In this document: one piece after another, positions 18,153 through 64,000 of the stretch
Numbering within the stretch: the stretch's first letter is position 1
How the letters are laid out: every line of letters starts with the position of its first letter
Assembly: GCA_903928015.1 (NCBI GenBank)
Contig: CAIYPF010000143.1
Span: 66,980 to 130,979, forward strand
DNA from: an uncultured Gammaproteobacteria bacterium
Lineage (GTDB): Bacteria > Pseudomonadota > Gammaproteobacteria > Pseudomonadales > UBA5518
DNA length: 64,000 bases
Direction: 5' to 3'
Program-made: the position numbers and the translations under genes
The notes under the pieces: model-generated
The model's input: the letters and a program-made list of their open reading frames with translations, nothing else
Databases searched by the model: none
What the model was told of the DNA's origin: nothing

Positions 18153-18188
18153 AAAAAAAAGGCGGGGCCCCGGGGCTCCGCCTTTTTT
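18153..18188. terminator. Bidirectional intrinsic terminator
   Basis: The structure is A8-GGCGGGGCC-CCGG-GGCTCCGCC-T6. It lies between the convergent permease and chemoreceptor genes. Confidence 0.7.
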
Positions 18189-18212
18189 GTGCCTGGGCAA
18201 ACTGCGCCAGAC

Positions 18213-22370: not shown

Positions 22371-22486
22371 AGCGAGCCACACCGCGGGCGACGCCGAAGC
22401 GGTGACAGTGCCGAAGTCCCCGCGTGACTGTCACGCGGGCAGCCGGCACAGTGTGCGTAACTGCAGCCACCTGCGGCAGACGTGCC

Positions 22487-24727
22487 ATGCCCCGACCAAG
22501 CCCCGTCCTTTTGATCCTCCTCCTCGCGTGCCTTTACGGCGCGCTACGGAGCAGCGACGCACACGCCGCCGATGTGCGAGAACGCCCACGCGTGGGTCTC
22601 GTGCTCGCCGGCGGTGGAGCACGCGGCATCGCGCACATCGGCGTGATCAAGTACCTCGAGGAGCAGGGCATCCATATCGATGCCGTAGCCGGCACAAGCA
22701 TGGGCTCCATCATCGGCGGGCTCTACGCCTCGGGCCTCACCGCGGCTGAGCTCGAGGAGACCGCACGCTCCATCGACTGGCGCTATGCACTGGACGATGA
22801 CACCCCGCGCGACCGCCTGCCATTCCGCCGCAAAGAGCAGGACTACGACTTCCTCGTAGGGGCCTCGCTGCGATTCAAGGACGGCGTGCTGAAGCTCCCC
22901 ATGGGTGCCATCGAAGGCCAGCACCTCAACTTCGTGCTGCACGACCTGGTCGCGCACGCCTCACGAATCCGCGACTTCGACAAACTTCCGATCCCCTATC
23001 GTGCAGTGGCCGCAGACATCGTCACGGGTGAAGCCGTGGTGCTGTCGAAAGGGGATCTCGCTCTCGCCATGCGCGCCAGCATGTCCATACCCGGAGTGTT
23101 CACGCCGGTGGACATCGACGGGCACTTGCTGGTCGACGGCGGCATCGCGATGAACATTCCCGTGACCGTTGCCCAGGCGATGGGCGTGGACCGCCTCGTG
23201 GTGGTGGACATCGGCACGCCGCTCGCGCCGCGGGAGAAACTCGACAACGTGCTGTCGCTGGTCGACCAGCTCACCAACATCATGACCCGCACCAACTCCG
23301 AGCTGCAGCTCAAACAGATGCGCGAGGGCGATGTGCTGGTGCGGCCGGCACTGGATGCAGCCGGGATAACGGCGACGAGCTTCGACCAACCGGAGGAGGC
23401 CATTGCCATCGGCTACGCCGCCGCAAAGTCGCTTGCCCCCGAACTCGCCACGCTCGCCGATTCGGACGAGGCACAACGACTCGCGAAGCGACCCCGCCTG
23501 GTGCTGCCGCGGATCGCGGAAATCCGCATCGACACCGACTCCAGCGTGCCCGAGAAGCTGCTGCGCAACATGATCACCCAGCCGATCGGCGAGCGCCTCG
23601 ACAGGGATCGCATCGAGAGCGACATCGCCGACATCTACGGTCTCGACGAATTCGCGCGGGTCGATTACGACGTGCTGAAGGAGGCGCACGGCTACGTCTT
23701 GCGCGTGAAGGCTACCCGCAATCCGCAGGGCGACAACGTGCTGAAGCTGGGGCTCAACTGGGATCAGGACAGCCGCGGAGAGAGCGAGTTCGGCGTCCGG
23801 GGCAGCTGGCACCAGCGCGGGCTGAACCGTTTGGGCGCCGAGTGGTACAGCGCGGGCCAACTCGGCGGGCACTCGTTCTTCCTCACGCAGTTCTACCAGC
23901 CGCTCGACACGGCGCGTCTCGTCTTTGCCGATGTCGCGTACCAGTACGAGCAGCGACAGCTCAATCTCTCGGACGACGGCGAACTGCGCGCGCGCGCGGT
24001 GGTCGACGATCACCAGCTGGAACTCGCCGGCGGCTACAACATCTCGAACGTGGCGCGCTTGCGCGCAGGCGCTTACCTGGGAACCGCCAACAACGACATC
24101 GAGATAGGCTCGCCCCTTCTCAGCTCCTCCAGCGAAGACGACGCTGGCTGGTTCGCGGAATTGAAGGTGGACACGCTGGACCGCGCCTATTTCCCGGGCA
24201 GCGGGCTGCGCTTCAGGACGCGCTTTTCCGAGGGCGAGGAGGCCTGGGGAGCGGAGACCGATTACCGCTCCTGGGAAACCGGATTCAGCGCGAGCAAAAG
24301 CCTCGGGCGAAACACCTTCACGCTGGGCGGACGCTGGTCGCAGATCGAACTGGACGAGCAGGCCAGCGGCGCGCGGATCCTCACGCTGCCCTCGCAGGCG
24401 TTCACGCTGGGTGGATTCCTCGCATTGTCCGGATACACCCGCGACTCGCTGGCGGGCAATTACCTCGGCTTCGCGAGTCTCAGCTGGTACCGGCGGCTAA
24501 CCGAACAATCGCTTTTGCCGGTAGACCTGCCGGTCTATGCAGGTATGAGCCTCGAGGCGGGAAACACCTGGATGAGAAAAGGCGAAGCCTCGTTCGGAGA
24601 CCTGATCCACGCGGGCAGCGTCTTTCTCGGGGTGGATTCTCCGCTCGGGCCGATCTACATCGGGCTGGGGCTTGGCGAGAACAACCAGCGGGCGATGTAC
24701 CTTCAGATCGGCCAGCCGCTGGACTGA
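22487..24727 (+). CDS. Patatin-like phospholipase fused to POTRA/Omp85 beta-barrel (PlpD-like, type Vd secretion architecture)
   Basis: It has a signal peptide (LLILLLACLYGALRSSDAHA). The patatin motifs GGGARG, GTSMG (GxSxG) and DGG are all present. The C-terminal half is beta-barrel-like with Omp85-type sequence. Confidence 0.85.
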   Translation: MPRPSPVLLILLLACLYGALRSSDAHAADVRERPRVGLVLAGGGARGIAHIGVIKYLEEQGIHIDAVAGTSMGSIIGGLYASGLTAAELEETARSIDWRYALDDDTPRDRLPFRRKEQDYDFLVGASLRFKDGVLKLPMGAIEGQHLNFVLHDLVAHASRIRDFDKLPIPYRAVAADIVTGEAVVLSKGDLALAMRASMSIPGVFTPVDIDGHLLVDGGIAMNIPVTVAQAMGVDRLVVVDIGTPLAPREKLDNVLSLVDQLTNIMTRTNSELQLKQMREGDVLVRPALDAAGITATSFDQPEEAIAIGYAAAKSLAPELATLADSDEAQRLAKRPRLVLPRIAEIRIDTDSSVPEKLLRNMITQPIGERLDRDRIESDIADIYGLDEFARVDYDVLKEAHGYVLRVKATRNPQGDNVLKLGLNWDQDSRGESEFGVRGSWHQRGLNRLGAEWYSAGQLGGHSFFLTQFYQPLDTARLVFADVAYQYEQRQLNLSDDGELRARAVVDDHQLELAGGYNISNVARLRAGAYLGTANNDIEIGSPLLSSSSEDDAGWFAELKVDTLDRAYFPGSGLRFRTRFSEGEEAWGAETDYRSWETGFSASKSLGRNTFTLGGRWSQIELDEQASGARILTLPSQAFTLGGFLALSGYTRDSLAGNYLGFASLSWYRRLTEQSLLPVDLPVYAGMSLEAGNTWMRKGEASFGDLIHAGSVFLGVDSPLGPIYIGLGLGENNQRAMYLQIGQPLD

Positions 24728-51758: not shown

Positions 51759-51834
51759 TCCGCCTTAGCTCAGTTGGTAGAGCAATTGACTGTTAATCAA
51801 TGGGTCGCTGGTTCGAGCCCAGCAGGCGGAGCCA
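51759..51834 (+). tRNA. tRNA-Asn (anticodon GTT)
   Basis: I folded it by hand. The acceptor stem is TCCGCCT/AGGCGGA followed by G-CCA, and the D-arm is GCTC-AGTTGGTA-GAGC. The anticodon loop is CTGTTAA, and the T-arm is CTGGT-TCGAGCC-CAGCA-like. Confidence 0.92.
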
Positions 51835-51855
51835 AATTCCGGAGTCATGTCCAAA

Positions 51856-51881
51856 GGGTTGCGAAAGCAGCCCTTTTTTTT
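51856..51881 (+). terminator. Intrinsic terminator after tRNA-Asn
   Basis: The structure is GGGTTGC-GAAA-GCAGCCC followed by 8 T. Confidence 0.65.
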
Positions 51882-52056: not shown

Positions 52057-52941
52057 ATGAAGACCGTCGTTGCACTGCTCATCATGATCGCTGCCGCCGC
52101 GGGCCATGCCGACCCTGCAACGTGCTGGGATGAACTCGTCTTCGAAGCGGGCAATGACTGGGCCACCGCGTCGAGCACGCTGCACTTCGGGCAGACGGAC
52201 GCGATGGCGACAAAGCTCGATCTCACGGGCGCGCCCTCAAAGGGACGACTGATGCCACAGGGCGCCTCGATAGGGGTGATCAGCGCCAGTGTCACGGCGA
52301 TGCGCAGCCACGGAGAACTGCAGACCTGGTTTGATCCGGTAAGTGGCGCTGCCCTCCAGAGCAGGCGCATCGGCTCCGGGCGTGACAGCCGGATGAAGAC
52401 ACACAGGTTTCTGCAGACGGGGGTCTGGCGAGAGAGGCGCACACCGGACGCCAGCACCCAGACCACCGCGCCCGAGACGTGGCCGCTTCGCTCTGCCGCG
52501 CAACTGAGCTATCCGCCCGACGTGAAGCGGGAGCCTGTGATCACGCCGCTCATGTTGCTGTCCCGGGCATCGGCGCTGGCGCTGCGCACCAAGCCCGGGA
52601 AGCTCGATTACGTAGTGCTGACCGATACTCAGTTATATCGCGTGGTGCTGGAGTCACGTCCCGACACCGTCATGCAGGCAAACGTGCAACTGGAGCCTGG
52701 CGCGAACGGGGCGGGGATACACGGCGAGCGCACCGTCCGCAGGGTCGATGTGCGACCACACCTGCTGGGTGAAGCACCCGAGGAGGAACCGTTCAGCCTC
52801 ATGGAACTCGAAGGCGAGACCGCATTGATGATCGACCGTGAGACGGGGCTTCCCCTGCAGATCCAGGGCCGGTGGATGCGCGTGGGCACTGTGACCGTAC
52901 CCCTTACGCGCGCAAGACTCCGCAGCGGATGCCGGCCGTGA
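52057..52941 (+). CDS. Secreted/periplasmic hypothetical protein (first gene of the envelope-lipid locus)
   Basis: It has a signal peptide (MKTVVALLIMIAAAAGHA). I recognise no motif with confidence. Its stop codon overlaps the start region of the next gene. Confidence 0.5.
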   Translation: MKTVVALLIMIAAAAGHADPATCWDELVFEAGNDWATASSTLHFGQTDAMATKLDLTGAPSKGRLMPQGASIGVISASVTAMRSHGELQTWFDPVSGAALQSRRIGSGRDSRMKTHRFLQTGVWRERRTPDASTQTTAPETWPLRSAAQLSYPPDVKREPVITPLMLLSRASALALRTKPGKLDYVVLTDTQLYRVVLESRPDTVMQANVQLEPGANGAGIHGERTVRRVDVRPHLLGEAPEEEPFSLMELEGETALMIDRETGLPLQIQGRWMRVGTVTVPLTRARLRSGCRP

Positions 52942-53897
52942 GCAAGAAGTTAGGCGTCATCAGCAATCCCCACAGCGGCCGCAACCGCCGGATGCTGGGA
53001 CATCTGCGCAACATTCTCGGAGCAGCCGGTGGCGTGCACCACGAAGTGACCGCGAGCGTGTCCGAGATTCCCGCTGCGTTGTCTCGTATGGCAGCGGCGG
53101 GAGTGGACGTAGTGGCAGTGAACGGTGGAGATGGAAGCGTCGCGCTGGTGCTGCAGGCCCTGCTTTCAGGGGATTCTCCCTTCGCGGCACAACCTCTGCT
53201 GTGCGCCCTTCCGGGCGGCACGACCAACGTGACGGTGGGCGACGTAGGTATCCGTGGCGCTCTGGACAAGGCTCTTCTCAAGCTGCTCGCCTGGCGCAAC
53301 GGCCGACTCGAGGCGCAGGTGATGGAGCGCGCGGTCATAGGGGTCAGGAATCGCGATGGCGAGGTTCTTGGGTGTGGGCTGGTATTCGGCGCAGGAGCCG
53401 TGGTGACCGGCATCGAATACTGGCAGGAATCGGTGCGCGCGCGTGGAATGCGCAGCGAGTACAGTTCAGGCGTTGCCATGACGCGCACCGTCTGGGGAAT
53501 GCTGCGAGGCCACGAGCGCTTCGCAGCCCCCATCCGCATGCGGCTGGATCTGCCCGGTGAAGCGCCGCTGGAGGCGGATTTCATGCTGCTTGCGGTAAGT
53601 ACGCTTGAGCGGCTTTTTCTGGGTATACACCCCTTCTGGGGCTCAGAGAGCGGCTCGCTACGGGTGACCGCCATCGAGCGCGGAGCGAGAGGATTTCTCG
53701 GAGCCCTGCCCTCCATACTGCAAGGGAAGTCTCCATCGCATGCGCGGAGGGACGGCTACCACAGCGCTCGCGTCGATGCATTCACCCTGGACTTCCACGG
53801 GAGCTACACGATGGACGGCGAACTCCACGCGACGCAGGCTGATGACGCACCGCTTCGCATCTTCACGGCGGGGCACGCCCGCTTCCTCCGGATCTGA
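52929..53897 (+). CDS. Diacylglycerol-kinase-catalytic-domain lipid kinase (YegS/LCB5/BmrU family)
   Basis: The N-terminus LGVISNPHSGRNRR..., the segment VVAVNGGDGSVALVLQAL (the GGDG motif) and LPGGTTNV are typical of the DAGK_cat fold. The start is ATG 52929, or GTG 52938 in a GTGA overlap with the upstream stop. Confidence 0.75.
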   Translation: MPAVSKKLGVISNPHSGRNRRMLGHLRNILGAAGGVHHEVTASVSEIPAALSRMAAAGVDVVAVNGGDGSVALVLQALLSGDSPFAAQPLLCALPGGTTNVTVGDVGIRGALDKALLKLLAWRNGRLEAQVMERAVIGVRNRDGEVLGCGLVFGAGAVVTGIEYWQESVRARGMRSEYSSGVAMTRTVWGMLRGHERFAAPIRMRLDLPGEAPLEADFMLLAVSTLERLFLGIHPFWGSESGSLRVTAIERGARGFLGALPSILQGKSPSHARRDGYHSARVDAFTLDFHGSYTMDGELHATQADDAPLRIFTAGHARFLRI

Positions 53898-53899
53898 CC

Positions 53900-54826
53900 A
53901 TGCATGACTTCGGCCCCCTGTTCCAGGGCGACGAAAAAGCGAACGCCGCGATTGAGGCACTGCTGGACGCACTGCGACGCCGGCATGGCGCTTCGCTGCG
54001 GAGCCTGATCTTCTACGGCTCCTGTCTGCGAAACGGCAACCTTGAAGACGGCCTGGTCGATCTCTACGCCATCGTCGACAACTATCGTCACGCCCACGGC
54101 AGTTCAATATCGGCTCTGACCAACCACCTGCTGGCGCCCAATGTGTATTACGTGGAGGCCGAATCCGGAGGACGGAAAATTCGCTGCAAGTACGCTGTTT
54201 TTTCCGAGCGGGAACTTGGGAAAGGCGTGTCTGCACGCCGCACCGAAAGCTATCTCTGGGGAAGGCTTTGCCAACCCGTAGCCATCGCCTGGGCCGCCGA
54301 CAACGCGGCACTTTCAACGGCTCGGGCTGCGCTAAGGCAGGCCAGCATCACGTTCCTGGACGAAGCGCTGCCACTGGCCGCGGACAAGGGCTATGTCCGG
54401 GAGATCTGGGCTACGGGGCTCGGTCTCAGTTACGCGACCGAGCTGCGCAGCGAGAGCCCCGACCGGGCCATCGGCATAGCGGATCAATCTGCCCTGCAAC
54501 TGATCGAGGCCACCGCCAGCGTGGCCCCTTCATGCCGCTGGCCACTGCATGTGGGCGGCGAGTTCTACACCTGCGTGATACCAGAAGATGAACGCCGGCG
54601 GGCAGCGCGCAAATGGGCGAGGCGCCGGGTGCAGGGTAAAGTCCTGTCGGTTTTGCGCCTGCTGAAAGCGCTTTTCACGTTTGACGGCGGACTCGACTAC
54701 ATCGCGTGGAAACTCGAGCGGCACACCGGAAGGCCCGTCGAGATCCCGCCTCACGTCCGCAGATTCCCCCTGCTCTTCGTGTGGGGCTTCATGTGGAAGC
54801 TCTATCGTCAGGGCTACTTCCGGTGA
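53900..54826 (+). CDS. Tam41/Mmp37-like nucleotidyltransferase (putative phosphatidate cytidylyltransferase type)
   Basis: The sequence LIFYGSCLRNGN..LVDLYAIVDNY...NVYYVEAESGGRKIRCKYAVFSEREL...SYLWGRLCQPVAI parallels the YGS.., D-x-D region, KYGV.S and Y.AGRLQKPV blocks I remember from Tam41. It starts 2 nt after the kinase gene's stop. Confidence 0.6.
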   Translation: MHDFGPLFQGDEKANAAIEALLDALRRRHGASLRSLIFYGSCLRNGNLEDGLVDLYAIVDNYRHAHGSSISALTNHLLAPNVYYVEAESGGRKIRCKYAVFSERELGKGVSARRTESYLWGRLCQPVAIAWAADNAALSTARAALRQASITFLDEALPLAADKGYVREIWATGLGLSYATELRSESPDRAIGIADQSALQLIEATASVAPSCRWPLHVGGEFYTCVIPEDERRRAARKWARRRVQGKVLSVLRLLKALFTFDGGLDYIAWKLERHTGRPVEIPPHVRRFPLLFVWGFMWKLYRQGYFR

Positions 54827-55869
54827 GCGCGCCCCGCATCTGGCTGGTACTGGGCGACAAGCCCGGAGACAACGCGCAGGTGGAAATCGTTGCCGATGCC
54901 ATCGGCCTGCCGGTGGAGCGCAGGCGCGTGATACCGAGGGCCGAATGGGTTCTGGGCAAACCACGTGTCGAGGCCTCGATCGCGCATCTGGATCCCGAGC
55001 GCTCGGATCGACTCGAAGCCCCATGGCCCGACCTCATCCTGACCATCGGCAGGCGACCGAGCATGGCAGCGCTGTGGATCAGGGAACAGTCGGGGGGACA
55101 CAGCAGAATCGTACTGTTCGGACCGCCAAAGCGTTGGCCCGAACGCTATTCGCTGATCGTGGCGCCCGCGCAATACCGGCTGAACAGCAACAGCAACCTG
55201 TTCCCCATACGATTCCCGCTCATGCGGAGCAACGCTGCAGACATCGAAGCCGCGCGCGCCACATGGAATGAGCGCCTCGCACAACTGCCGCGCCCTATCA
55301 CCGCGCTTCTGGTAGGAGGCCAGACAAAACCCTATCGGCTGGATGCGGACTTCGCCCGTGAACTGGCGGAACGCGCAGCAGCTCTCGCGCACCCGGGATC
55401 GCTCTATGTAAGCACGAGCAGGCGAACCCTTCCGGGCGCTGTGGCTGCGCTGGAGTCCGCATTGCCGGGCGGCACTCCGTTTTTCCGCTGGTCGGCGGAG
55501 GCCGCGGACAACCCCTATCTCGGCCTTCTGGCTCTGGCGGACCGATTCATCGTAACGGGCGACAGCATATCGATGATGGTCGAGGTTGCCCGTCTGGGAC
55601 GGCCGCTCGCCATTGCGGAACTGCCGTACCGCTCACGTCTTGCAGGCTGCATGCACGGCTGGGTGAATAGCGAAGAAGGATTGCCAGCAGCACTCCGCAA
55701 GGCGGGCTTTACGCGTGGCGCCCGCGATCTTTCCGCAATGCACAGGGTCCTGTACCACGAGGGGCTCGCCAGGCCACTGGACGCCGGCTTCCCTGCTGCG
55801 GGGGCCGGAGCCCTGGAGGACGAACTCCCGCGCGTCGCTGCTGCCGTACGGGCGCTGTTGCAACTCTGA
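54823..55869 (+). CDS. ELM1-family protein (Mito_fiss_Elm1 / COG3660; predicted GT-B-like nucleotide-sugar enzyme)
   Basis: The GTG start sits in a GTGA overlap with the upstream stop. The N-terminus IWLVLGDKPGDNAQVEIVADAIGLP matches the W.l.g.k.GdnnQ..LA..LG signature of bacterial ELM1 proteins. It is paralogous to 58750..59898. Confidence 0.65.
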   Translation: MSAPRIWLVLGDKPGDNAQVEIVADAIGLPVERRRVIPRAEWVLGKPRVEASIAHLDPERSDRLEAPWPDLILTIGRRPSMAALWIREQSGGHSRIVLFGPPKRWPERYSLIVAPAQYRLNSNSNLFPIRFPLMRSNAADIEAARATWNERLAQLPRPITALLVGGQTKPYRLDADFARELAERAAALAHPGSLYVSTSRRTLPGAVAALESALPGGTPFFRWSAEAADNPYLGLLALADRFIVTGDSISMMVEVARLGRPLAIAELPYRSRLAGCMHGWVNSEEGLPAALRKAGFTRGARDLSAMHRVLYHEGLARPLDAGFPAAGAGALEDELPRVAAAVRALLQL

Positions 55870-55961
55870 CAGTTCCTGCACGCTGGCAGCAGGCTCACCG
55901 GACTGCTACGGTTCCGGATGTCTACGCCCGCTGTCGGTGCGGGTGGACTCCGGAGTCCGCA

Positions 55962-56702
55962 ATGCTCAAGAAAATCCTCAAACGTACCCGCAACATCCTG
56001 CGCTACGGCCTGAGCGAAGAAGGTCGTGCCCGCAAGCGCGCCGACAAGGCCGCCGTACGCGACAAGCGCTTCGAGTCAGGCCTGTGGGAGCGTGACGGGG
56101 AACTCGCTCGGCGCAAGTACGCCTCCTACGAGGAGTACGTCGACCATCAGGCGGCCAAGTTGGACAACATCGTCCACCGCCTCGAGGAAACACGAAGTGA
56201 AGACTACGCGGACTTCGTCCGCCGCTTCGGGGGTTGCGCCCCGTTGCGCCGCGCTCGCAACGTGCTTTGCCTGGGTGCAAGGCTGGGCACGGAGGTCCAG
56301 GCCATGCACAGCCTCGGACTCTTCGCAGTGGGGATAGACCTCAACCCCGGCCCCGACAACCTCTACGTGGTCAAAGGCGATTTCCACGCCATCCAGTTTC
56401 CCGACGGCTCGGTCGATGCGGTCTACACGAACGTCTTCGATCACGTCTACGACATGGCGAAGATGATCGCGGAAATCGAACGCATACTGCCCACTGGAGG
56501 ATTGCTGGTGGCAGATGTGTTGAAGGGCTTCGAGGAGGGCTTCGTGCCCGGCGCCTATGAGGCCACGCACTGGAAGAACGTCGACGCGCTGCTCGCCGAG
56601 ATTCTTCGCCTCGGGCATTTCGACGTGATCGAACGCAGGGATCTGGGACAGGTTCGGCGCGACCACTGGATACAGTTGGTCCTGCAGAAGCAGGCGGCGT
56701 AG
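55962..56702 (+). CDS. Class I SAM-dependent methyltransferase
   Basis: Motif I is VLCLGARLGTEV and the post-I region is AVGIDLNP. Motif II/III reads FPDGSVDAVYTNVFDHV. GGAG lies 6 nt upstream of the ATG. Confidence 0.8.
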   Translation: MLKKILKRTRNILRYGLSEEGRARKRADKAAVRDKRFESGLWERDGELARRKYASYEEYVDHQAAKLDNIVHRLEETRSEDYADFVRRFGGCAPLRRARNVLCLGARLGTEVQAMHSLGLFAVGIDLNPGPDNLYVVKGDFHAIQFPDGSVDAVYTNVFDHVYDMAKMIAEIERILPTGGLLVADVLKGFEEGFVPGAYEATHWKNVDALLAEILRLGHFDVIERRDLGQVRRDHWIQLVLQKQAA

Positions 56703-56802
56703 ATATTCACTTTCCGGCCACAGGCAAAGTACCGCCAGCACGGGGTGGGGCCTCCACCGACCCGCTGGTAGACTCCCGCCCATTCAACTGACGGTTCATT
56801 CG

Positions 56803-57741
56803 ATGCAGACCGTTCTCAAGAAGATCACCCGCTTCGTGATCCTCGGCCTCTGCTTCTGGCTGCCCCGCGAGCGCAAGATCCGGCTCGAGCGATGGCTTCG
56901 CGGCAAGGAAGAGTTCCGTAAACTCGAACTCGCCGACTGCGTGATCGTCTCGTTCGGCAAGAGTGGCCGGACATGGCTGCGCGTCCTCCTCTCCCGCTTC
57001 TACCAGGTGCGCCACGGGCTTTCCGAGCGTCACCTGATCGGCTTCGACAACCTCAACAGCCGCAACGCGGCAATCCCCCGAATTTTCTTCACGCACGACA
57101 ATTATCTGAAGGACTACACCGGCCACATCGAGGACAAGCGGGACTACTACGGCAAGAAGGTCATCCTGCTTGCGCGCAACCCCCTCGACACCACGGTCTC
57201 CCAGTTCTTCCAGTGGAAATTCCGGATGCGTCCCGGCAAGAAATCCCTGAACGCCTATCCGGAACATGGCGCGGAGGTCGAACTCTTTCCGTTCATGACA
57301 GACCCTTCTGCCGGCCTGCCCAAGGTGATCGACTGGCTGAACCTTTGGGCTCAAGAGGCGCCGAAGTGCAAGGATTTCCTGTTGGTGCGCTACGAGGACA
57401 TGCGTGCCGACACCGCAGGCACCCTGTCAAAGATCGTGGAGTTCATTGGTACGCCCGGTACAGCGGAGCAGCTTCAGGCCGCAGTGGATTTCGCGTCGGT
57501 CGAGAACATGCGAAGCATGGAACTCAAGCGCACCTTCTGGCTCTCGGGCAGCAGGATGGTAGCCAAAGACAAGGACAACCCGAACTCCTTCAAGGTCCGC
57601 AAAGCCAAAGTCGGGGGCTATCGCGATTACTTCAATGACGCGGAAGTCGGCGAACTCGAACAGATCATGGCGCGGGATCTCGCGCCCTTCTACGCTTTTC
57701 CAATGGAAGACAACCGGCCTGCGGGTTCACACGCCGGATGA
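56803..57741 (+). CDS. PAPS-type sulfotransferase-domain protein with hydrophobic N-terminus
   Basis: The 5'-PSB-like loop is SFGKSGRTWLRVLLS and the 3'-PB-like region is LLVRYEDMRADTAGTLSKIVEFIG. The C-terminal motif is RKAKVGGYRDYF. The N-terminus carries a hydrophobic stretch, FVILGLCFWL. Confidence 0.8.
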   Translation: MQTVLKKITRFVILGLCFWLPRERKIRLERWLRGKEEFRKLELADCVIVSFGKSGRTWLRVLLSRFYQVRHGLSERHLIGFDNLNSRNAAIPRIFFTHDNYLKDYTGHIEDKRDYYGKKVILLARNPLDTTVSQFFQWKFRMRPGKKSLNAYPEHGAEVELFPFMTDPSAGLPKVIDWLNLWAQEAPKCKDFLLVRYEDMRADTAGTLSKIVEFIGTPGTAEQLQAAVDFASVENMRSMELKRTFWLSGSRMVAKDKDNPNSFKVRKAKVGGYRDYFNDAEVGELEQIMARDLAPFYAFPMEDNRPAGSHAG

Positions 57742-57791
57742 CACAAACCGCGCGCCCTCCCCGTGGCGCATCAGAACCGGAGGACTGCACC

Positions 57792-58739
57792 ATGCAGAAC
57801 TGTGTATTCATCCAGACCAACCACAAGCAATACACCGGAGCCCTCGTCGCGCAGCACGCGCTGAGGCGCTACTCCAGCCACAACGACAAGTTCGACATAC
57901 GCATCATCGACGCCCGGGACTACCCGTACTTCGATGCACGTGAGGGTCAGAGCTACCTTCGGGACGGCGTGAAGCGTGTCTGGCTTAACGATGACCTTCA
58001 ATCCTTCACGCTCACACGGTTCATGCCCCCGGAGTTGATGGGCTTCCAGGGCCGTGCGATCGTTATCGATCCTGATGTTTTTGCCTGTGCGGACATATGG
58101 GACCTGTTCTCACGCGACATGGAAGGAAAGGCGATCCTCTGTCGCCCGCGATCAGGCACCAAGGGCCTGATCGACAAGTGCCTCGCGACCAGCGTGATGC
58201 TCCTCGACTGCGCAAAACTCCGCGACTGGAAGGTCGAGGAACGCTTCCAGCGCATGTTCGATTTCAGCTTCGACTACATGGACTGGATCTGCCTCAAGAC
58301 CGAGGCCTCAGGCACGGTGGGGCTCTTCGAGAACGAGTGGAACGACTTCGACAAACTGAGTCCGGCCACGCGGATGCTCCACACGACGCGCCGCCGCACA
58401 CAGCCCTGGAAAACCGGACTGCCGGTGGATTACCGCATCGCCGAACGCTTCCGCCTATTCCCGCCCGCCGCATGGCTGATGCGCGCGCGGCGACATCTCT
58501 TCGGTGAATACGGGCTGATGGGAAGTTACAAGCAACACCCGGACATCAACCAGCAGCATCTGTTTTTCGGGCTTCTGAAGGAGTGCGTGGCCAACGGCAG
58601 CGTGACGGAAGCGTTCCTGCGGGAGGAAATGGCCAAGAACCACGTCCGGCACGACGCCTTCGAAATACTCGAGCAGACGCCGGACCTGCCTCCCGCACCG
58701 ATGCACCCCTTGTCGAGCACGGTATCCCGCGCTGCCTGA
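57792..58739 (+). CDS. Glycosyltransferase family 8-like protein (tentative)
   Basis: GGAGGA lies upstream of ATG 57792. The start is NCVFIQTNHKQYTGALVAQHALRRYS. The segment SFTLTRFMPPELMGFQGRAIVIDPDVFACADIWDLF shows a DxD-like IDPD in the position seen in RfaI/J-type GT8 enzymes. Confidence 0.5.
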   Translation: MQNCVFIQTNHKQYTGALVAQHALRRYSSHNDKFDIRIIDARDYPYFDAREGQSYLRDGVKRVWLNDDLQSFTLTRFMPPELMGFQGRAIVIDPDVFACADIWDLFSRDMEGKAILCRPRSGTKGLIDKCLATSVMLLDCAKLRDWKVEERFQRMFDFSFDYMDWICLKTEASGTVGLFENEWNDFDKLSPATRMLHTTRRRTQPWKTGLPVDYRIAERFRLFPPAAWLMRARRHLFGEYGLMGSYKQHPDINQQHLFFGLLKECVANGSVTEAFLREEMAKNHVRHDAFEILEQTPDLPPAPMHPLSSTVSRAA

Positions 58740-58749
58740 GTAGAGCGTC

Positions 58750-59898
58750 TCAGTTGCCGGAGGCATCTCCTGGAGGGTGGCCGGCGAAGAGCCCGGCCAC
58801 CGCCATCGCGGCAGCCATTGTGTCGTCATGCCGCATCTCGAGGCTGGCGCGCGCTGGCCCCGCGGAGCCCAGCCATGCCGCTCTCCCCTGCTTCACCAAT
58901 CCCTGCATCATGCCCTCGGCATCACGCCGCATGCGCGCTGGCCCTAATGTCGCTGCGAGCCGGTGCATAAGCGCATCGAACCGGTAGTTGTAGCGCCTCT
59001 TCCACCAGTCCGGCCCATCCTCGAGGCTGAAGAGATACACCGGCCGCCCGGTGAATTCTGCCTCGGCAACCATCGAGACACTGTCCGCTGTCACCACGAA
59101 CTGCTCCGCAATGGCCAGGTATCCGACATAGGGGTTCATCTCTCGTGGACCACCCCAGCGATGTGCGAGGACCGGCACGTCGATCGTGCCGAGAAAAGCA
59201 TCCAGCACTCCCACTGGTGTGCGCGCGCTGTCGGTAACCAACACCGAGCCACCGCGGGAGCGCGCGAGCCCGTTGACCATCTGACCGAGGAGGCGCGCCT
59301 TCGAGGGGGTGAATACATACGCACCGCTATTTCCGCCGAGCAAAACCGCAGTACGCGGCAAAGGCAGGGCGGAGAATTCCTGCTGCCAGCGTCTTCTTCC
59401 GGCAGAAAGCGTGCTCTCGTTCAGCCGGTGCATGGGCAAGGCATTCATCAATACGTTCGGAAACTCGGCGATGGGATACTGCGGAGTGGCCACCACCAGA
59501 TCGAAACAGCCCGGGTCAGCCCAAGGTCGCCCGACGTGCACGATGCGCGCCAGTCCTCCGGATTGGCGTTGTATCCACCGCGCCACAGGCTCGTTGCGGC
59601 GACCAGAACTGATCACCAGATCCGGCCACGGGGCCTGAAGCGGACTCGAGGCGGACCTGTCGATGCCCGCCAGCGTGACACCCAGCATCCGGTTGGCGAG
59701 CAACTCCCACGGGCGGAATACGATGTGCTTTTCCTCGCAGGGCCAGCCGAGGCGGTCGGCCAGGGCCAGCACCTGTGTGTTGTCTCCCGCCTTGCGCCCG
59801 AGCAGGAGCCAGACACGGGTGGCGGGAGGACGCTGGAAAAGGTCTTCGCGCACGGTGGATGAAGCTCCTCGCGCGATGGCGGGTGGACGATACTGCAT
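58750..59898 (-). CDS. ELM1-family protein, second paralogue
   Basis: The segment VWLLLGRKAGDNTQVLALADRLGWP...APWPDLVISSGRRNEPVARWIQRQSGGLARIVHVG aligns by eye with 54823..55869 (APWPDLILTIGRRPSMAALWIREQSGGHSRIVLFG). The start is uncertain: ATG 59898 lies only 14 nt from the divergent lptF ATG, and GTG 59853 is an alternative. Confidence 0.65.
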   Translation of the reverse strand: MQYRPPAIARGASSTVREDLFQRPPATRVWLLLGRKAGDNTQVLALADRLGWPCEEKHIVFRPWELLANRMLGVTLAGIDRSASSPLQAPWPDLVISSGRRNEPVARWIQRQSGGLARIVHVGRPWADPGCFDLVVATPQYPIAEFPNVLMNALPMHRLNESTLSAGRRRWQQEFSALPLPRTAVLLGGNSGAYVFTPSKARLLGQMVNGLARSRGGSVLVTDSARTPVGVLDAFLGTIDVPVLAHRWGGPREMNPYVGYLAIAEQFVVTADSVSMVAEAEFTGRPVYLFSLEDGPDWWKRRYNYRFDALMHRLAATLGPARMRRDAEGMMQGLVKQGRAAWLGSAGPARASLEMRHDDTMAAAMAVAGLFAGHPPGDASGN

Positions 59899-59912
59899 TA
59901 CAATACCAGCCC

Positions 59913-60986
59913 ATGCTAATCGAGCGTTACGTCACGGCGGAGATTGCCCGGCCCTTCGCTGCAGGTCTGGGCATTCTTGTCACGGTCTTCGTGACATTCA
60001 CCGCAGCCCTCAAACTCTCGGATGCAGCCGCCGGAGCCATTGCACCTGCGGCCGTGATGCAACTCGTGATACTGAGCACCCTTGTCGCGCTCGAAGTCCT
60101 AGTACCCTCTACTCTCTACATGGCCATCCTGTTTGCCATAGGCAGACTGCACCGGGACTCCGAGATGGCAGCACTCGCTGCGGCTGGAATAAGTGAACGA
60201 AGGGTACTGCGCGCGGTGATGCTTGTAGGCCTCTTGGCGGCGCTGCTGGTCTGGGCCCTGTCGGTGCACGTGCGGCCGTGGGCATATGCCAAGAGCTACA
60301 CGCTCGAGCAACAGGCGATGAGCCGCTTCGATCTGGCGAACATTCGCCCGGGCAGCTTCGTGGATCTGGGCCAAGGCGGCTATGTCCTTCAGGCGCAGGA
60401 AGTAGATCCCTCGGCTTCGGAACTGCGTTCGGTGTTCGTGCAAGTCACGCGCGGACGGCATACCCAGCTGATTTCAGCCGCGCGCGCGCGGGTACTCGAC
60501 CTGGATGCAGAGGGAGCGCGCGCGGTTGAGTTTGTCGACGGCTACAGCTACATGCTCGACGGTCAGGGAAATCAGGACGTCAGCATGCGTTTCGGTTCGT
60601 TCCTCGTGAGGTTCCCTCCCGAGGAGCGGATGCAGAAGTTCCGGCGCAAGGCGATAGACACACACACGCTCGGCACGTCACTCGAACCCAAGGACATTGC
60701 GGAGTACCAGTGGCGCACCACCACGCCGCTGGCAACGCTGTTGCTCGCCGTGCTCGCCGTTCCTCTTGCCCGCTCAGGCCCCCGCCAATCACGCTTTGGC
60801 ATCTTCGTGGTCGCGCTGCTCGCATACCTGCTTATATTCGTCGCGAGTGCAGTGGTGCGTAACTGGATCGAGAACGGCGATATGCCCCCATTCCCGGGTC
60901 TGGTCGTGGCTTACCTGCCCGCGTTTGCGGTGACGGCCTGGCTCCTGCGCTTCCCCAACACCAGAGCCGGATGGTGGCGCAGGTGA
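59913..60986 (+). CDS. lptF: LPS export ABC transporter permease LptF
   Basis: The N-terminus MLIERYVTAEIARPFAAGLGILVTVF matches the LptF/YjgP pattern. A large periplasmic beta-jellyroll insert lies between TM3 and TM4. lptG follows it. Confidence 0.85.
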   Translation: MLIERYVTAEIARPFAAGLGILVTVFVTFTAALKLSDAAAGAIAPAAVMQLVILSTLVALEVLVPSTLYMAILFAIGRLHRDSEMAALAAAGISERRVLRAVMLVGLLAALLVWALSVHVRPWAYAKSYTLEQQAMSRFDLANIRPGSFVDLGQGGYVLQAQEVDPSASELRSVFVQVTRGRHTQLISAARARVLDLDAEGARAVEFVDGYSYMLDGQGNQDVSMRFGSFLVRFPPEERMQKFRRKAIDTHTLGTSLEPKDIAEYQWRTTTPLATLLLAVLAVPLARSGPRQSRFGIFVVALLAYLLIFVASAVVRNWIENGDMPPFPGLVVAYLPAFAVTAWLLRFPNTRAGWWRR

Positions 60987-62080
60987 TACTGGGGCGTTAT
61001 CTGGGACGCGAATTGTTCCGTGGCTGGCTCACCGTGTCCGCTGCGCTCTCGGCCATGTTCGCGCTGCTGCAATTGGTGGAGGAAGGCGACAACCTGAGCG
61101 ATCGGTACCGTTTCCTGGACGCCCTCGCATACGTTGCCCTCAGCACGCCACAACGCGTGCTGGAACTGGCACCGGTTATTGCCGCACTGGGAACGCTGAT
61201 GGCCTTTGCGACATTGAGCCGCAACAGTGAACTCGTGGTGATACGGACTGCGGGGATATCCACCCGTGGCTTGTTGCGCATGGCGCTGGCGCCCACAGTA
61301 TTGCTGGTGCTCACGCTCGCCATGGCGAGCGAATTCATGGTGGCACCCATGCAACACCACGCCGAAACCCAACGCACGGTGCTGCGCAGCGGCAATCTGG
61401 ACCTGCTCGCAGGCAAGGGACTTTGGTCCCGGACGGGGCGGCAATTCCTGAACGTGCGAGAGCTTCCAGCGGGGCAGTCTCCTGAGGGCATATCACTCTA
61501 CGAATTCGACGAAAGCGGCAGGCTGCTGCGCGCCATAGAGGCGGAGCGAGCGGAGCTCATGCCCGACAGGCGCTGGCGACTCGTGAACGCACGCATCAAG
61601 GACTGGAGCGGAAACACCCGCCGCAACGAATCCTCTGCCTCGCTTGACCTGGGTCCGTTCTGGTCCGCCACCGAACTTCCCGCGCTCGGGCAATCCACCG
61701 CCGCGATGTCACCACGAGCGCTCTATCGCTACGCGGAACACTTGCGCCTCACGGGACAGGACGATCGCGACGTGCGCATGGCCTTCTGGGAGAAAGCCAC
61801 TCTCCCGCTGTCTGCCGCATCCATGGTGCTGCTCTGCGCGGTTCTGGGGATCGGATTCGGCTCCACCCGGAGCACGGCGTTCGGCTGGAGAGTGCTGGCA
61901 GGCGCGGTGATCGGAACCGGCTTCTATCTGCTCACCCGCATACTGCATACGGCGGGAAACATTCTGGGTCTGCAGCAGGCGTTGGTGGTGCTGTTGCCCA
62001 TCGCTCTTGTGGTCGCGCTTTCAGCCCTTATAGCCGCGCGCACACGCGGCCCACGCCGAGCCCGGGAGCCGCGCGCATGA
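60971..62080 (+). CDS. lptG: LPS export ABC transporter permease LptG
   Basis: The N-terminus ILGRYLGRELFRGWLTVSAALSAMFALLQLVEE matches the LptG/YjgQ pattern. It overlaps lptF by 16 nt. Confidence 0.85.
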   Translation: MVAQVILGRYLGRELFRGWLTVSAALSAMFALLQLVEEGDNLSDRYRFLDALAYVALSTPQRVLELAPVIAALGTLMAFATLSRNSELVVIRTAGISTRGLLRMALAPTVLLVLTLAMASEFMVAPMQHHAETQRTVLRSGNLDLLAGKGLWSRTGRQFLNVRELPAGQSPEGISLYEFDESGRLLRAIEAERAELMPDRRWRLVNARIKDWSGNTRRNESSASLDLGPFWSATELPALGQSTAAMSPRALYRYAEHLRLTGQDDRDVRMAFWEKATLPLSAASMVLLCAVLGIGFGSTRSTAFGWRVLAGAVIGTGFYLLTRILHTAGNILGLQQALVVLLPIALVVALSALIAARTRGPRRAREPRA

Positions 62081-63789
62081 GATTGATGCTGAGCTTTTAC
62101 CGGAGCTATCCGCTGCGGACACTGCTGACGCTACTGGCAATGTCGGTCGCCGGACTCGCGGAGGGCATCGGGCTCTCGGCTCTGCTCCCGTTGCTCAACA
62201 TCGCGATCGAGAGCGAAGCGGGATCCTCCTCGCCCTTGCCCGCCACGACCAGCAATGGTTTCGAGCAAGGCGTGCGAGAGGCGCTGGCCTGGGCAGGAAT
62301 CACTCCGGACCTGAACAACCTTCTCGTGCTGATCGTGGCCGCACTTACCCTCAAAAGCCTGCTGCTCCTCGTAGCGCAGGTGCAGGTGGGCTACAGCTCG
62401 GCGAGGCTCGCCACCGATCTGCGACTCGAACTTCTGCGGGCCATCCTTCTCAGCCGCTGGTCATACTTTCTGAACCAACCCGTGGGCAAGCTGACCAATT
62501 CGCTTGCCACCGAGGCATCACGCGCGGCAGAGGCATTCCAGAACGGCGCGACCGCCCTCACGTTCCTGTTCCAGGCGCTGGTCTATGGCGCCGTCGCGCT
62601 GGCCGTTTCCTGGCGCGCGACACTCGTGGGGATCATTGCCGGCGCAATCATCATCGGATTCTCCCACTCGCTGGTGCGGATCACGAAGAAAGCGGGCAAG
62701 AAACAGACGTCGGTGCTGCTGTCGCTGATGTCCACCATGACAGACACTCTCGCCTCGGTTAAACCGCTGAAGGGCATGGGCAGGGAGCATCTCGCGGGGT
62801 CGGTACTGTCCATGGAAACCGGCCGTCTCAACCAGGCGCTGGAGCGTCAGGTGCTGAGCAGCGCCTGGCTGGATTCCATGCAGCAGATCCTGTTCGCGGT
62901 GATCATCGCAGGCGGCATGTACGTGGCACTGGTCCGTAACGGGATGCCCCTCGCTACCGTGATGGTGCTGGTCGTGGTCATCGGCCAGATGGTCGCACTG
63001 TTAGGCAAGGTCCAGAAGCAGTACCAGAAGTCGACCATCGGCGAGAGCGCCTACTGGTCGATGCGCGCGACCATCGCCGAGGCCGCGGGCGAGGAAGAGG
63101 AACTGCCCGCGGGAGCGATCCCCTCGATAGGCACTGGCCTGAGCCTCGAACATCTGGGGTTCCGCTACGGCGAGAGGACGGTTCTTGACGACGTTGGACT
63201 GGAAATTCCGGCGGGCTCGCTGGTGACCCTGATAGGCCCCTCGGGCAGCGGGAAGACCACGATAGTGGACCTCGTGATCGGACTGCTGCGCCCTGACTCC
63301 GGACGGGTGATGATTGGTGGCGTCCCGCTCGCGGAGACCGACATTCGTCAGTGGCGTCGCGCCATTGGCTATGTGCCCCAGGAGACCTTGCTGCTCCACG
63401 AGAGCATTGCGCACAACGTGAGCCTCGGAGATCCGGAAATCCCCGTCGTGGATATCGAGCAGGCGTTGCGGGCCGCAGGTGCCTGGGATTTCGTAAGCGC
63501 TCTTCCGGGAGGCATGGACGCGAGCGTGGGCGAGCGGGGAGGAAAGCTCTCCGGAGGACAGCGACAGCGCGTCGTGATAGCGCGCGCTCTGGTACGCAAG
63601 CCGCAACTGCTGATCCTTGACGAGGCGACCAGCGCCCTGGATGGCGAAAGCGCGGAGGCTGTACGACAGACACTCCAGCAACTCCGGGGATCGCTCACGA
63701 TTCTGGCTATCACGCACCAGGAATTGCTTGTGGATATAGCGGACCGCGTCTATCGCCTGGATAACGGCCGGGCGCAGCTTCAAGGCTGA
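62077..63789 (+). CDS. ABC exporter, fused permease/ATPase half-transporter (MsbA-like type I exporter)
   Basis: ATGA overlaps the lptG stop codon. A 6-TM N-terminal domain is followed by Walker A (GPSGSGKTT), the signature LSGGQRQRV, Walker B (LLILDEATSALD) and an H-loop (ITHQ). Confidence 0.9.
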   Translation: MRLMLSFYRSYPLRTLLTLLAMSVAGLAEGIGLSALLPLLNIAIESEAGSSSPLPATTSNGFEQGVREALAWAGITPDLNNLLVLIVAALTLKSLLLLVAQVQVGYSSARLATDLRLELLRAILLSRWSYFLNQPVGKLTNSLATEASRAAEAFQNGATALTFLFQALVYGAVALAVSWRATLVGIIAGAIIIGFSHSLVRITKKAGKKQTSVLLSLMSTMTDTLASVKPLKGMGREHLAGSVLSMETGRLNQALERQVLSSAWLDSMQQILFAVIIAGGMYVALVRNGMPLATVMVLVVVIGQMVALLGKVQKQYQKSTIGESAYWSMRATIAEAAGEEEELPAGAIPSIGTGLSLEHLGFRYGERTVLDDVGLEIPAGSLVTLIGPSGSGKTTIVDLVIGLLRPDSGRVMIGGVPLAETDIRQWRRAIGYVPQETLLLHESIAHNVSLGDPEIPVVDIEQALRAAGAWDFVSALPGGMDASVGERGGKLSGGQRQRVVIARALVRKPQLLILDEATSALDGESAEAVRQTLQQLRGSLTILAITHQELLVDIADRVYRLDNGRAQLQG

Positions 63790-64000
63790 TCGAAAAGCGC
63801 CCGGACTCTGTGCACGGCCCGCTCCACGTCCGGCGAAGGCGCCACGCTCCGCAAGTGGTGCTCCTGACCGAGCCAGACCGCCCTGCCCTCCGACATCATC
63901 CTGTCGTGCACGAGGGAGATGTCACGACCGAGCCTGCGCGGCCCGCAGCGCAGCAAGAATCGGTAACCCATCGTGTCGGGACTGTGATCGCGCGCGACAG
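63780..64000 (-). CDS. 3' end of an unidentified gene that continues beyond the window
   Basis: The minus-strand frame is open from the window edge (VARDHSPDTMGYRFLLRCGPRRLGRDISLVHDRMM...ALFDQP*). Its stop overlaps the ABC gene's end by 10 nt. I recognise no motif. Confidence 0.35.
   Translation of the reverse strand, partial: VARDHSPDTMGYRFLLRCGPRRLGRDISLVHDRMMSEGRAVWLGQEHHLRSVAPSPDVERAVHRVRALFDQP

Follow-up and report, generated by a model that had tools for sequence, protein, structure and literature searches.

Which lipid is made by a bacterial gene cluster that sets a lipid kinase and a Tam41-like nucleotidyltransferase beside ELM1-family, methyltransferase, sulfotransferase and glycosyltransferase genes, and that runs into lptF, lptG and an ABC exporter gene? 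The question is raised by eleven genes at positions 52057-63789 of a 64,000-nucleotide stretch of DNA (the window) from an uncultured gammaproteobacterium (assembly GCA_903928015.1, contig CAIYPF010000143.1, positions 66,980 to 130,979). A first-pass annotation, made without database searches, had placed eleven genes after a tRNA-Asn; they are real, and our own gene calls are the same as those stored with the source contig. It had proposed that a lipid is phosphorylated, possibly activated with cytidine monophosphate (CMP), tailored, and exported to the envelope, and this general logic is supported. Where it had named a lipopolysaccharide (LPS) core, lipid A, or a lipid based on diacylglycerol or phosphatidate, the lipid is most likely a ceramide, given that the gene for serine palmitoyltransferase (Spt) and other ceramide genes lie 1-7 kb past the end of the window. 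The eleven genes and the adjacent ceramide genes are a bacterial sphingolipid locus. We consider it highly probable that the eleven genes form the half of this locus devoted to the head group and to export, and our best guess from the gene set is that the product would be a sulfated, glycosylated ceramide-phosphate lipid of the outer membrane.

Ceramide Genes beyond the End of the Window

After the ABC exporter gene, the same 202-kb contig encodes, in order, a third ELM1 protein (ELM1c), an 80-amino-acid acyl carrier protein, a 395-amino-acid aminotransferase, a metallophosphoesterase, an NTP-transferase, a 380-amino-acid bCerS-like protein, a 600-amino-acid AMP-binding enzyme, an epimerase-type CerR-like reductase, and a P450. 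The ceramide genes begin about 1 kb beyond the end of the window, and those for Spt, the acyl carrier protein, and the acyl-AMP ligase are found in one locus, 1.1-5.5 kb past that end. The aminotransferase was identified as Spt by the NCBIfam equivalog NF047599 (590.7 bits, cut-off 500) and the AMP-binding enzyme as a fatty acyl-AMP ligase by PRK09192 (810 bits), while the acyl carrier protein matched PP-binding at 39.3 bits. The bCerS-like protein and the CerR-like reductase have no dedicated model in Pfam or NCBIfam. The former was 46% identical to E. coli YghO and 44-48% identical to the bCerS-position proteins of other loci, including those of Roseomonas and Pseudomonas, and the latter was 39-43% identical to the CerR-position counterparts in the loci compared. 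The counterparts of bCerS, AasR, CerR, and Spt were 43-53% identical to the annotated E. coli spt locus. The ceramide gene set of Caulobacter and its relatives consists of AasR, AcpR, Spt, bCerS, and CerR, and a dedicated acyl carrier protein, an acyl-AMP ligase, Spt, bCerS, and CerR are common to Caulobacter and the locus studied here.

The Lipid Kinase and the Tam41-Like Protein

The first-pass annotation held that these enzyme families were not known to work together. Several of them do so in Caulobacter, where the ceramide-phosphoglycerate pathway combines CpgB, CpgC, NTP-transferases, a metallophosphoesterase, and a second LptF/LptG pair (PMC9393093; PMC11324152 and its S1 Text; PMC12275187; bioRxiv 10.64898/2026.04.12.717747). 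The Caulobacter locus, CC_1152-CC_1168 (cpgABCD, lptF2/G2), leads to ceramide phosphoglycerate and ceramide diphosphoglycerate. In this pathway CC_1160 (CpgB) is a ceramide kinase of the DAGK fold, and CC_1161 (CpgC), encoded beside it, converts ceramide-1-phosphate to ceramide phosphoglycerate by an unknown mechanism. The second phosphoglycerate is added by CpgA, a CDP-alcohol phosphatidyltransferase, together with CpgD, which makes CDP-glycerate (CDP, cytidine diphosphate), and the NTP-transferase CC_1153 and the metallophosphoesterase CC_1158 also contribute.

In the window, the lipid kinase (52929-53897, plus strand) matched DAGK_cat at 52.5 bits (cut-off 23.6) and is followed after a gap of 2 bases by the gene for the 308-amino-acid Tam41/Mmp37-fold nucleotidyltransferase (53900-54826, plus strand), an adjacency that looks like that of CpgB and CpgC. 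The link to Caulobacter was drawn not from the Caulobacter proteins directly but through a Roseomonas haemaphysalidis replicon, found by tblastn of plasmid records, that keeps the exact Caulobacter gene order (CpgD-like, CC_1153-like, bCerS, LptG2, LptF2, HIT, metallophosphoesterase, CpgA, kinase, hypothetical protein, Spt, and acyl carrier protein). Over approximately their full lengths, the kinase was 34% identical to the CpgB-position protein of this replicon (E = 3e-30) and the Tam41-like protein 34% identical to the CpgC-position protein (E = 2e-42).

The assignment of the second protein to Tam41 in the first-pass annotation stood by fold and by family profile but not by the Pfam score, which was under the gathering score of PF09139 (17.8 bits against 24); some of its relatives carry a precomputed PF09139 match. 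A profile built from 22 relatives matched Tam41 of S. pombe (6IG2) among PDB sequences, with E = 4.6e-4. The AlphaFold model (predicted local distance difference test score, pLDDT, of 86.6) shows a nucleotidyltransferase domain and a C-terminal helical domain, as in the Tam41 fold, and its top five Foldseek matches were all Tam41 structures (6IG4, 7ECD, and 6IG2; E = 7.7e-10 to 1.1e-8, TM-scores 0.49-0.60), the next-best fold being that of aminoglycoside nucleotidyltransferases (E = 3.8e-5 or worse). With the mitochondrial and Firmicutes Tam41 proteins it shares this fold over about 280 columns, profile similarity, and the G-S...D nucleotidyltransferase motif. It differs from them in sequence (14-17% identity) and in its context, which points to ceramide-1-phosphate rather than phosphatidate. 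An exhaustive profile search placed 1486 representative clusters in the family at E <= 0.001; its best 150 matches were all close relatives, among which the Caulobacter CpgC was not reached. Homologs of CC_1161 (CpgC) do carry the Tam41/Mmp37 InterPro domain (PMC11324152, S1 Text).

From sequence and position, the kinase is probably the counterpart of the ceramide kinase CpgB and would convert ceramide to ceramide-1-phosphate. By analogy with Tam41, its neighbor would most likely use cytidine triphosphate (CTP) and ceramide-1-phosphate to form CDP-ceramide, or carry out an equivalent step toward a phosphodiester head group. The same pair might instead belong to a glycerolipid pathway, in which the kinase would act on diacylglycerol, the Tam41-like protein would make CDP-diacylglycerol, and the product would be a sulfated glycoglycerolipid. 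Tam41, which the fold matches, does make CDP-diacylglycerol, and CpgB phosphorylates diacylglycerol as well in vitro (PMC11324152, S1 Text). Such a pathway nevertheless seems scarcely credible to us, as the pair occurs together with spt, bCerS, and CerR in almost all loci long enough to include them, and as it matches the CpgB and CpgC positions. Bacteria, moreover, already make CDP-diacylglycerol with CdsA.

Conservation of the Locus in Other Bacteria

A relative of the Tam41-like protein is encoded by 287 species genomes. Judged by their record titles, the best 80 of these are almost all Gammaproteobacteria (broad Pseudomonadales, Halieaceae, Porticoccus, Thiogranum, Thiohalobacter, Sedimenticolaceae, and Woeseiaceae), and the carriers include two cultured organisms, Pseudohaliea rubra and Ca. 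Litorirhabdus singularis. Gene neighborhoods were counted in 72 loci with a Tam41-like gene, taken with 10-kb flanks, and in the 37 of these that span at least 18 kb ("long" loci); individual loci are cited below by number. The kinase gene lies directly 5' of the Tam41-like gene in 65 of the 72. ELM1 genes were present in 30 of the 37 long loci, a sulfotransferase gene in 23, a GT8-like gene in 22, and both of the latter in 21, so that the neighborhood comparison proposed in the first-pass annotation came out in favor of a conserved gene set. Ceramide genes were seen in 23/37 and lptF/G in 15/37, both counts being limited by the 10-kb flanks. The tailoring genes stand between the ceramide genes and lptFG in several distinct arrangements, and their being kept together through these argues against chance adjacency.

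Besides the genes of ceramide synthesis, the Caulobacter locus and the locus studied here have in common a kinase gene beside that of a Tam41-domain protein, a CC_1153-type NTP-transferase, a metallophosphoesterase, and an LptF/LptG pair within the locus, and an anionic outer-membrane lipid is the product there and the expected product here. Unlike Caulobacter, the locus studied here has three ELM1 genes, a GT8-like gene, a sulfotransferase, a methyltransferase, an ABC exporter, an orphan secreted protein, and a P450, whereas it lacks, within the 31.7 kb viewed, CpgA, a CpgD-type cytidylyltransferase, the HIT protein, the Wzx-like flippase, and LptC2. No Pfam match to CpgA (PF01066) was found among the genes called on the stretch of the source contig around the cluster. 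There is no CpgD-type (CC_1152) cytidylyltransferase in the source locus either: the sole NTP-transferase in view was considered as CpgD, an identity that we rejected, since it scored 155 bits to the CC_1153-position protein of the Roseomonas locus against 24 bits to the CpgD-position protein.

These differences bear on whether the locus simply makes the known Caulobacter lipids, ceramide phosphoglycerate and its diphosphoglycerate form (CPG and CPG2), with the extra genes being unrelated or of minor importance. Counterparts of CpgB, CpgC, CC_1153, CC_1158, LptF2/G2, and all ceramide genes are present, and CPG in Caulobacter needs only CpgB and CpgC. We regard this explanation as very unlikely. 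CpgD is missing on the scores just given, and a six-frame scan detected the CDP-alcohol phosphatidyltransferase motif in none of the loci of the window's type but only in L037, L047, and L082, each of which has an open reading frame of 401-418 amino acids with a CpgA-like motif just 5' of the Tam41-like gene (8599-9855 in L047, for example). ELM1 genes are absent from all three loci with this CpgA-like gene and occur in 30 of the remaining 34 long loci (Fisher p = 0.0045, uncorrected for relatedness), an exclusion that hints that ELM1 replaces the function of CpgA. The six extra tailoring genes are also tightly co-conserved, and the GT8-like gene, the most conserved of the accessory genes, encodes proteins 67-89% identical across loci. 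In the sulfated ceramide-phosphate reading that we prefer, then, ceramide synthesis, CpgB/CpgC-type activation, and LptF2/G2 export are the known part of the locus, and a tailoring set that replaces CpgA and CpgD, and that dozens of gammaproteobacterial species keep, is the new part.

Contiguous gammaproteobacterial spt loci have been noted before in Azotobacter vinelandii and Pseudomonas luteola (PMC11324152) and in E. coli UTI89 (bioRxiv 10.64898/2026.04.12.717747). They resemble the present locus in being contiguous and in having a second lptFG pair. They differ from it in that they are described as Caulobacter-like and that none is reported to have a sulfotransferase, a GT8-like gene, or multiple ELM1 genes. 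The E. coli locus shares bCerS, AasR, CerR, acyl carrier protein, Spt, and LptF2/G2 with it at 29-53% identity but is without a kinase or Tam41-like gene. In the literature searched, which mostly lacks subscription journals, we found no report of a module of ELM1, GT8-like, sulfotransferase, methyltransferase, ABC, and secreted-protein genes, nor of the combined absence of CpgA and CpgD, and searches on bacterial sphingolipids or the carrier taxa together with sulfotransferases, ELM1, or serine palmitoyltransferase returned nothing relevant.

The annotated spt locus occurs in 1707 of 5426 complete E. coli genomes. In the one E. coli record inspected (L087, NZ_CP028320.1) it lies between glcC and yghS and includes yghO (bCerS-like), an acyl-AMP ligase, a reductase, and an acyl carrier protein gene; its second lptG/lptF pair is named as LPS permeases, and genes for the kinase and the Tam41-like protein are absent.

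Among full synteny matches, L008 (CAMAXE010000013.1) was the closest, with 58-91% protein identity. The genome bins of L008, L011, and L073 are labelled Klebsiella pneumoniae, "uncultured Klebsiella sp.," and "uncultured Enterobacteriaceae bacterium," labels that look wrong. In L001, L002, and L013 (approximately 12200-17000), the place of the methyltransferase is taken by a cassette, beside a divergent ELM1a gene, that encodes a 543-amino-acid HMGL-like aldolase/synthase, a CTP_transf_3 cytidylyltransferase, a HAD phosphatase, a 314-amino-acid protein, and a 2-oxoglutarate- (2OG-) Fe(II) oxygenase; L057 has only the HMGL-like and cytidylyltransferase genes. This cassette looks like a route to a CMP-activated acid donor.

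A complete sphingolipid locus was also found on the IncP plasmid pPNP1 of Pseudomonas sp. JS425 (L088, NZ_CP073662.1, 1500-22000), a few kb from a class 1 integron with sul1. It encodes an ABC exporter, Spt, acyl carrier protein, CerR, AasR, bCerS (interrupted or flanked by an IS5 element), an NTP-transferase, LptF, and LptG, and further the kinase, the Tam41-like protein, a metallophosphoesterase, ELM1, an Asp/Asn hydroxylase, CpgA, and a CpgD-like protein. Its location suggests that sphingolipid synthesis may move between bacteria on plasmids.

The ELM1 Paralogs

Pfam and NCBIfam searches bore out the families first assigned to the kinase, two ELM1 proteins, the methyltransferase, the sulfotransferase, LptF, LptG, and the ABC exporter. 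The ELM1/KdoT-family GT-B transferases number three with the one that crosses the end of the window. ELM1a (54823-55869, plus strand), ELM1b (58750-59853, minus strand, 367 amino acids), and ELM1c (355 amino acids, minus strand) matched Mito_fiss_Elm1 (PF06258) at 176.5, 197.7, and 200.4 bits, respectively. The window holds only the 3' end of the ELM1c gene (63780-64000), the translation at the end of the window being the C-terminus of the gene that continues on the source contig. The start of ELM1a overlaps the stop of the Tam41-like gene (GTGA), and ELM1a follows the Tam41-like gene in most loci of the Thiogranum and Thiohalobacter types; ELM1b keeps its position and strand in relatives.

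The one characterized bacterial member of the family is KdoT (A1S_2903) of Acinetobacter baumannii. This inverting GT-B transferase takes 3-deoxy-D-manno-oct-2-ulosonic acid (Kdo) from CMP-Kdo, adds it to Kdo2-lipid A, and requires the second arginine of its SRRT motif (motif defined in PMC12856342). ELM1a-c belong with KdoT to PF06258 and to its GT-B fold family. Their versions of the motif are TSRRT, DSART, and TSSRT, in which S, R, and T are invariant and the KdoT-type second arginine is kept in all three. They differ from KdoT in context: KdoT is encoded within a lipooligosaccharide core cluster and ELM1a-c within a sphingolipid locus. Since KdoT uses CMP-Kdo and the SRRT arginine is invariant here, donors with a CMP leaving group are to be expected, and the three paralogs are likely candidate users of CMP-linked donors. 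By this analogy the donors could be CMP-ulosonic acids, an acid activated as a nucleoside diphosphate by the CC_1153-type enzyme, or CDP-ceramide itself. The genomic context argues for a sphingolipid acceptor, so that the acceptor of ELM1a-c, and possibly their donor too, would differ from those of KdoT.

The GT8-Like Enzyme, the Sulfotransferase, the Methyltransferase, and the Secreted Protein

For the 315-amino-acid product of the gene at 57792-58739 (plus strand), the first-pass assignment to GT8 was recovered by predicted fold but not by sequence, as no Pfam (including Glyco_transf_8), NCBIfam, or PDB sequence match was obtained, even with a family profile. The top 50 fold matches of its AlphaFold model (pLDDT 81.5) were all GT8 or GT8-like, with a best E of 1.5e-8 and TM-scores up to 0.54, and included GlyE, 3TZT, LgtC, LARGE1, XXYLT1, glycogenin, and UGGT. 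The motifs D93-P-D95 and H197...TQPWK are invariant (the DPD motif in 34 sequences). By fold only, the protein thus appears to be a GT-A glycosyltransferase of the GT8 type with a DxD motif. GT8 enzymes are retaining, and retention of configuration would therefore be expected of it.

In the plasmid locus L088, a 780-amino-acid protein (16533-18875), annotated as "ELM1/GtrOC1 family putative glycosyltransferase," is a fusion of the two families, with an N-terminal segment like the GT8-like protein of the window (E = 1e-7) and a C-terminal domain like ELM1b (39% identity). This fusion suggests that the two enzymes work together.

The sulfotransferase (56803-57741, plus strand), which has a hydrophobic N-terminal segment and is of the type that uses 3'-phosphoadenosine-5'-phosphosulfate (PAPS), matched Sulfotransfer_1 at 81.3 bits (cut-off 22). 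Its best relative of solved structure was SULT2A1, a hydroxysteroid/bile-salt sulfotransferase (E = 2.4e-11), and its GKSGRTW and RNPLDTTVS segments align with the PAPS-binding motifs PKSGTNW and RNPRDVLVS of that enzyme.

Other loci vary in their sulfotransferase content. Halieaceae loci have up to three GT8-like genes and four sulfotransferase matches. In five loci of Halieaceae, Cellvibrionales, and Pseudomonadales (L060, L063, L071, L075, and L086), up to three GT8-like genes, up to five sulfotransferase matches, and 2OG-Fe(II) oxygenases surround the kinase/Tam41-like pair, which suggests that the head group there is multiply sulfated. In a minimal locus on CP070821.1 (L003/L014), just two genes come after the kinase/Tam41-like pair, for an Asp/Arg hydroxylase (LpxO-like) and a sulfotransferase, and neither ELM1 nor GT8-like genes occur within 10 kb; this locus is flanked by genes for a fused ATP sulfurylase/adenosine 5'-phosphosulfate kinase (323-2065 and 11097-12820), which would supply PAPS.

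The S-adenosylmethionine-dependent methyltransferase (55962-56702, plus strand; Methyltransf_11, 43.9 bits) is an accessory gene, found at the same position only in L008 and L034 among the loci compared. The first of the eleven genes (52057-52941, plus strand), a gene call of an orphan family, encodes a secreted protein of 294 amino acids with an N-terminal signal-like segment followed by a conserved W-x-E-L motif, and in its closest relatives the mature protein starts Cys-Trp-x-Glu-Leu. Residues W24, L27, R104, G108, R112, K114, R125, R127, and W142 are invariant in the family alignment, and homologs lie directly 5' of the kinase gene in 13 of the 37 long loci. No Pfam or PDB match was obtained for it, family profile included. 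Our guess is that it could be a periplasmic partner of the pathway.

Transport Genes and the Choice between Ceramide and LPS

The two permeases that follow, LptF (59913-60986, plus strand) and LptG (60971-62080, plus strand), matched LptF_LptG at 189.6 and 198.6 bits. Both were above the NCBIfam equivalog cut-offs, LptF with 281.9 bits against 230 for TIGR04407 and LptG with 265.9 against 240 for TIGR04408, and passing these cut-offs does not separate canonical permeases from paralogs, since the second, spt-linked pair of E. coli bears the same product names. Comparison with PDB entries alone did not tell the canonical proteins and the paralogs apart. With BLASTP, LptF scored 70 bits to the canonical E. 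coli LptF against 171 to the copy in the E. coli spt locus and 195 to that in the Pseudomonas plasmid spt locus; to the canonical P. aeruginosa LptF it scored 127 bits, a phmmer rather than a BLASTP value. For LptG, the BLASTP scores were 112 bits to the canonical E. coli protein and 142 and 126 to the spt-locus copies. By position and by the LptF scores, the two are most likely the sphingolipid-locus paralogs LptF2 and LptG2. In Caulobacter, LptF2/G2 are required for the transport of anionic sphingolipids, CC_1155 and CC_1156 being the second LptG/LptF pair.

The last of the eleven genes (62077-63789, plus strand) encodes a half-transporter of 570 amino acids and exporter type, with ABC_membrane and ABC_tran domains. 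It had been called MsbA-like, which holds for its ABC exporter architecture; MsbA orthology was rejected, as the protein scored far under the cut-offs of both MsbA models (TIGR02203, 249.2 bits against 602; PRK11176, 190 against 867). A gene for such an exporter, with 45-85% identity, lies beside lptFG or spt in L008, L033, L056, L080, L083, L085, and L088, and the half-transporter is a candidate for flipping the finished lipid.

Several points weigh against a ceramide-based product. The ceramide genes lie past the window, and our reading of them comes from a contig on which all genes shared with the window are 100% identical by tblastn. CDP-ceramide is an analogy and not a finding, being drawn from Tam41 and not from an established chemistry of the Caulobacter CpgC. 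Both LptF and LptG exceed cut-offs set for LPS permeases, and the LptG comparison only weakly favors the paralog. An LPS acceptor is possible for the ELM1, GT8-like, and sulfotransferase proteins, because the only characterized bacterial ELM1 enzyme acts on Kdo2-lipid A. Finally, the product is derived wholly from genes.

Some of these points are what would be seen if the cluster decorated an LPS core or lipid A beside a canonical lptFG pair, with ELM1 proteins adding Kdo-like sugars to Kdo2-lipid A in the manner of KdoT, the GT8-like enzyme extending the core like enzymes of the LgtC or WaaO type, the sulfotransferase and methyltransferase decorating it, and the sphingolipid genes being mere neighbors. 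That the substrate of KdoT is a lipooligosaccharide would agree with such a role, as would the GT8 enzymes common in LPS cores and the presence of LgtC among the fold matches. We nevertheless judge it unlikely. Sphingolipid genes flank the tailoring genes on both sides and remain with them in several rearranged forms of the locus across families, the start of ELM1a lies over the Tam41-like stop codon, and the GT8-like/ELM1 fusion lies inside a plasmid sphingolipid locus without LPS genes around it. The names LptF and LptG are given by the NCBI pipeline to the spt-linked copies of E. coli as well, and it is to those copies that the LptF of the window is nearer. No lpx, waa, or kds genes were seen among the scanned window genes or in the loci.

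Proposed Pathway

From the gene content, homology, folds, motifs, synteny, and co-conservation described above, we infer the enzymatic steps, the order of tailoring, and the structure of the sphingolipid as follows. Ceramide would be made by the products of the genes past the end of the window, namely, the acyl carrier protein, the fatty acyl-AMP ligase, Spt, the bCerS-like N-acyltransferase, and the CerR-like reductase. The DAGK-fold kinase would phosphorylate it to ceramide-1-phosphate, which the Tam41-fold enzyme would activate or extend, CDP-ceramide being the simplest product by the Tam41 analogy. The head group would then be built at the cytoplasmic face of the inner membrane: the three ELM1 enzymes may add units from probable CMP-linked donors, the GT8-like enzyme a sugar, the PAPS sulfotransferase would sulfate a hydroxyl, and the methyltransferase would methylate. 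As PAPS and nucleotide donors are found in the cytoplasm, tailoring would be expected to precede flipping. The ABC half-transporter would flip the anionic lipid across the inner membrane, and LptF2/LptG2 would extract it for delivery to the outer membrane, probably making use of LptB and the remainder of the Lpt bridge, as happens in Caulobacter.

A broader claim can be put forward tentatively, and taken as a whole it is somewhat more apt to fail than to hold. Many Gammaproteobacteria, among them Halieaceae (the marine OM60/NOR5 clade, PMC10100682), Porticoccus, Thiogranum, Thiohalobacter, Woeseiaceae, and freshwater Pseudomonadales, may make an undescribed sulfated, glycosylated ceramide phosphate of the outer membrane. 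In these bacteria the lipid would be formed via CDP-ceramide, itself made by the Tam41-like enzyme, with ELM1 proteins and CMP-linked donors replacing CpgA/CpgD, with GT8-like/sulfotransferase pairs each adding a sulfated sugar, and with a dedicated ABC flippase and LptF2/G2 for export. Since cultured carriers exist, the prediction is directly testable, and these strains offer a way into the function of CpgC-type Tam41-like proteins and the flipping of sphingolipids across the inner membrane.

In Caulobacter, sphingolipids whose head groups are anionic can take over part of the role of LPS, and they are transported with the help of the Lpt machine. If the proposal is true, this type of locus would extend such sphingolipid biology to many Gammaproteobacteria, marine and freshwater groups among them, with a different head group that probably carries sulfate, and the negative charge of the outer membrane could come from sulfate instead of phosphate. 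The bacterial ELM1 family would gain a second biological context beside that of KdoT, and a GT8-like family of more than 5,000 "hypothetical" proteins would be defined. For annotation, genes labelled LptF or LptG inside such loci probably do not encode LPS permeases.

Organization and Surroundings of the Cluster

The upstream boundary of the cluster is a tRNA-Asn(GTT) gene (51759-51834, plus strand), detected by ARAGORN and by the Rfam tRNA model at 70.8 bits, with a terminator-like hairpin and T-run 3' of it at 51853-51876. The ten junctions between successive genes measure -13, +2, -4, +92, +100, +50, +10, +59, -16, and -4 bases, negative values being overlaps. The first-pass annotation had listed two ELM1 genes in succession; they are not adjacent, the true order being ELM1a (plus strand), methyltransferase, sulfotransferase, GT8-like, ELM1b (minus strand), and lptF. 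ELM1b is convergent with the GT8-like gene and divergent from lptF. Its place on the minus strand implies at least three transcription units in the region, and a single eleven-gene operon was ruled out on the same ground. Inside the cluster, a scan for sigma-70 promoters and terminators gave no excess over chance, and the Rfam scan of the window returned tRNAs only. The source DNA has a G+C content of about 65%, and the closest species genomes are 66-71% identical in the Tam41-like protein.

The genes farther upstream in the window (2211-7976, 10961-15856, and 22424-24727) have no relation to the cluster. Among their products are an RND efflux system (membrane-fusion protein, AcrB-type pump, and outer-membrane factor), a 1631-amino-acid 2-oxoacid:ferredoxin oxidoreductase-like protein with DUF6537, a ZnuA-type binding protein, a molybdopterin oxidoreductase, a 767-amino-acid patatin-like phospholipase, an HDOD protein, and a thiolase.

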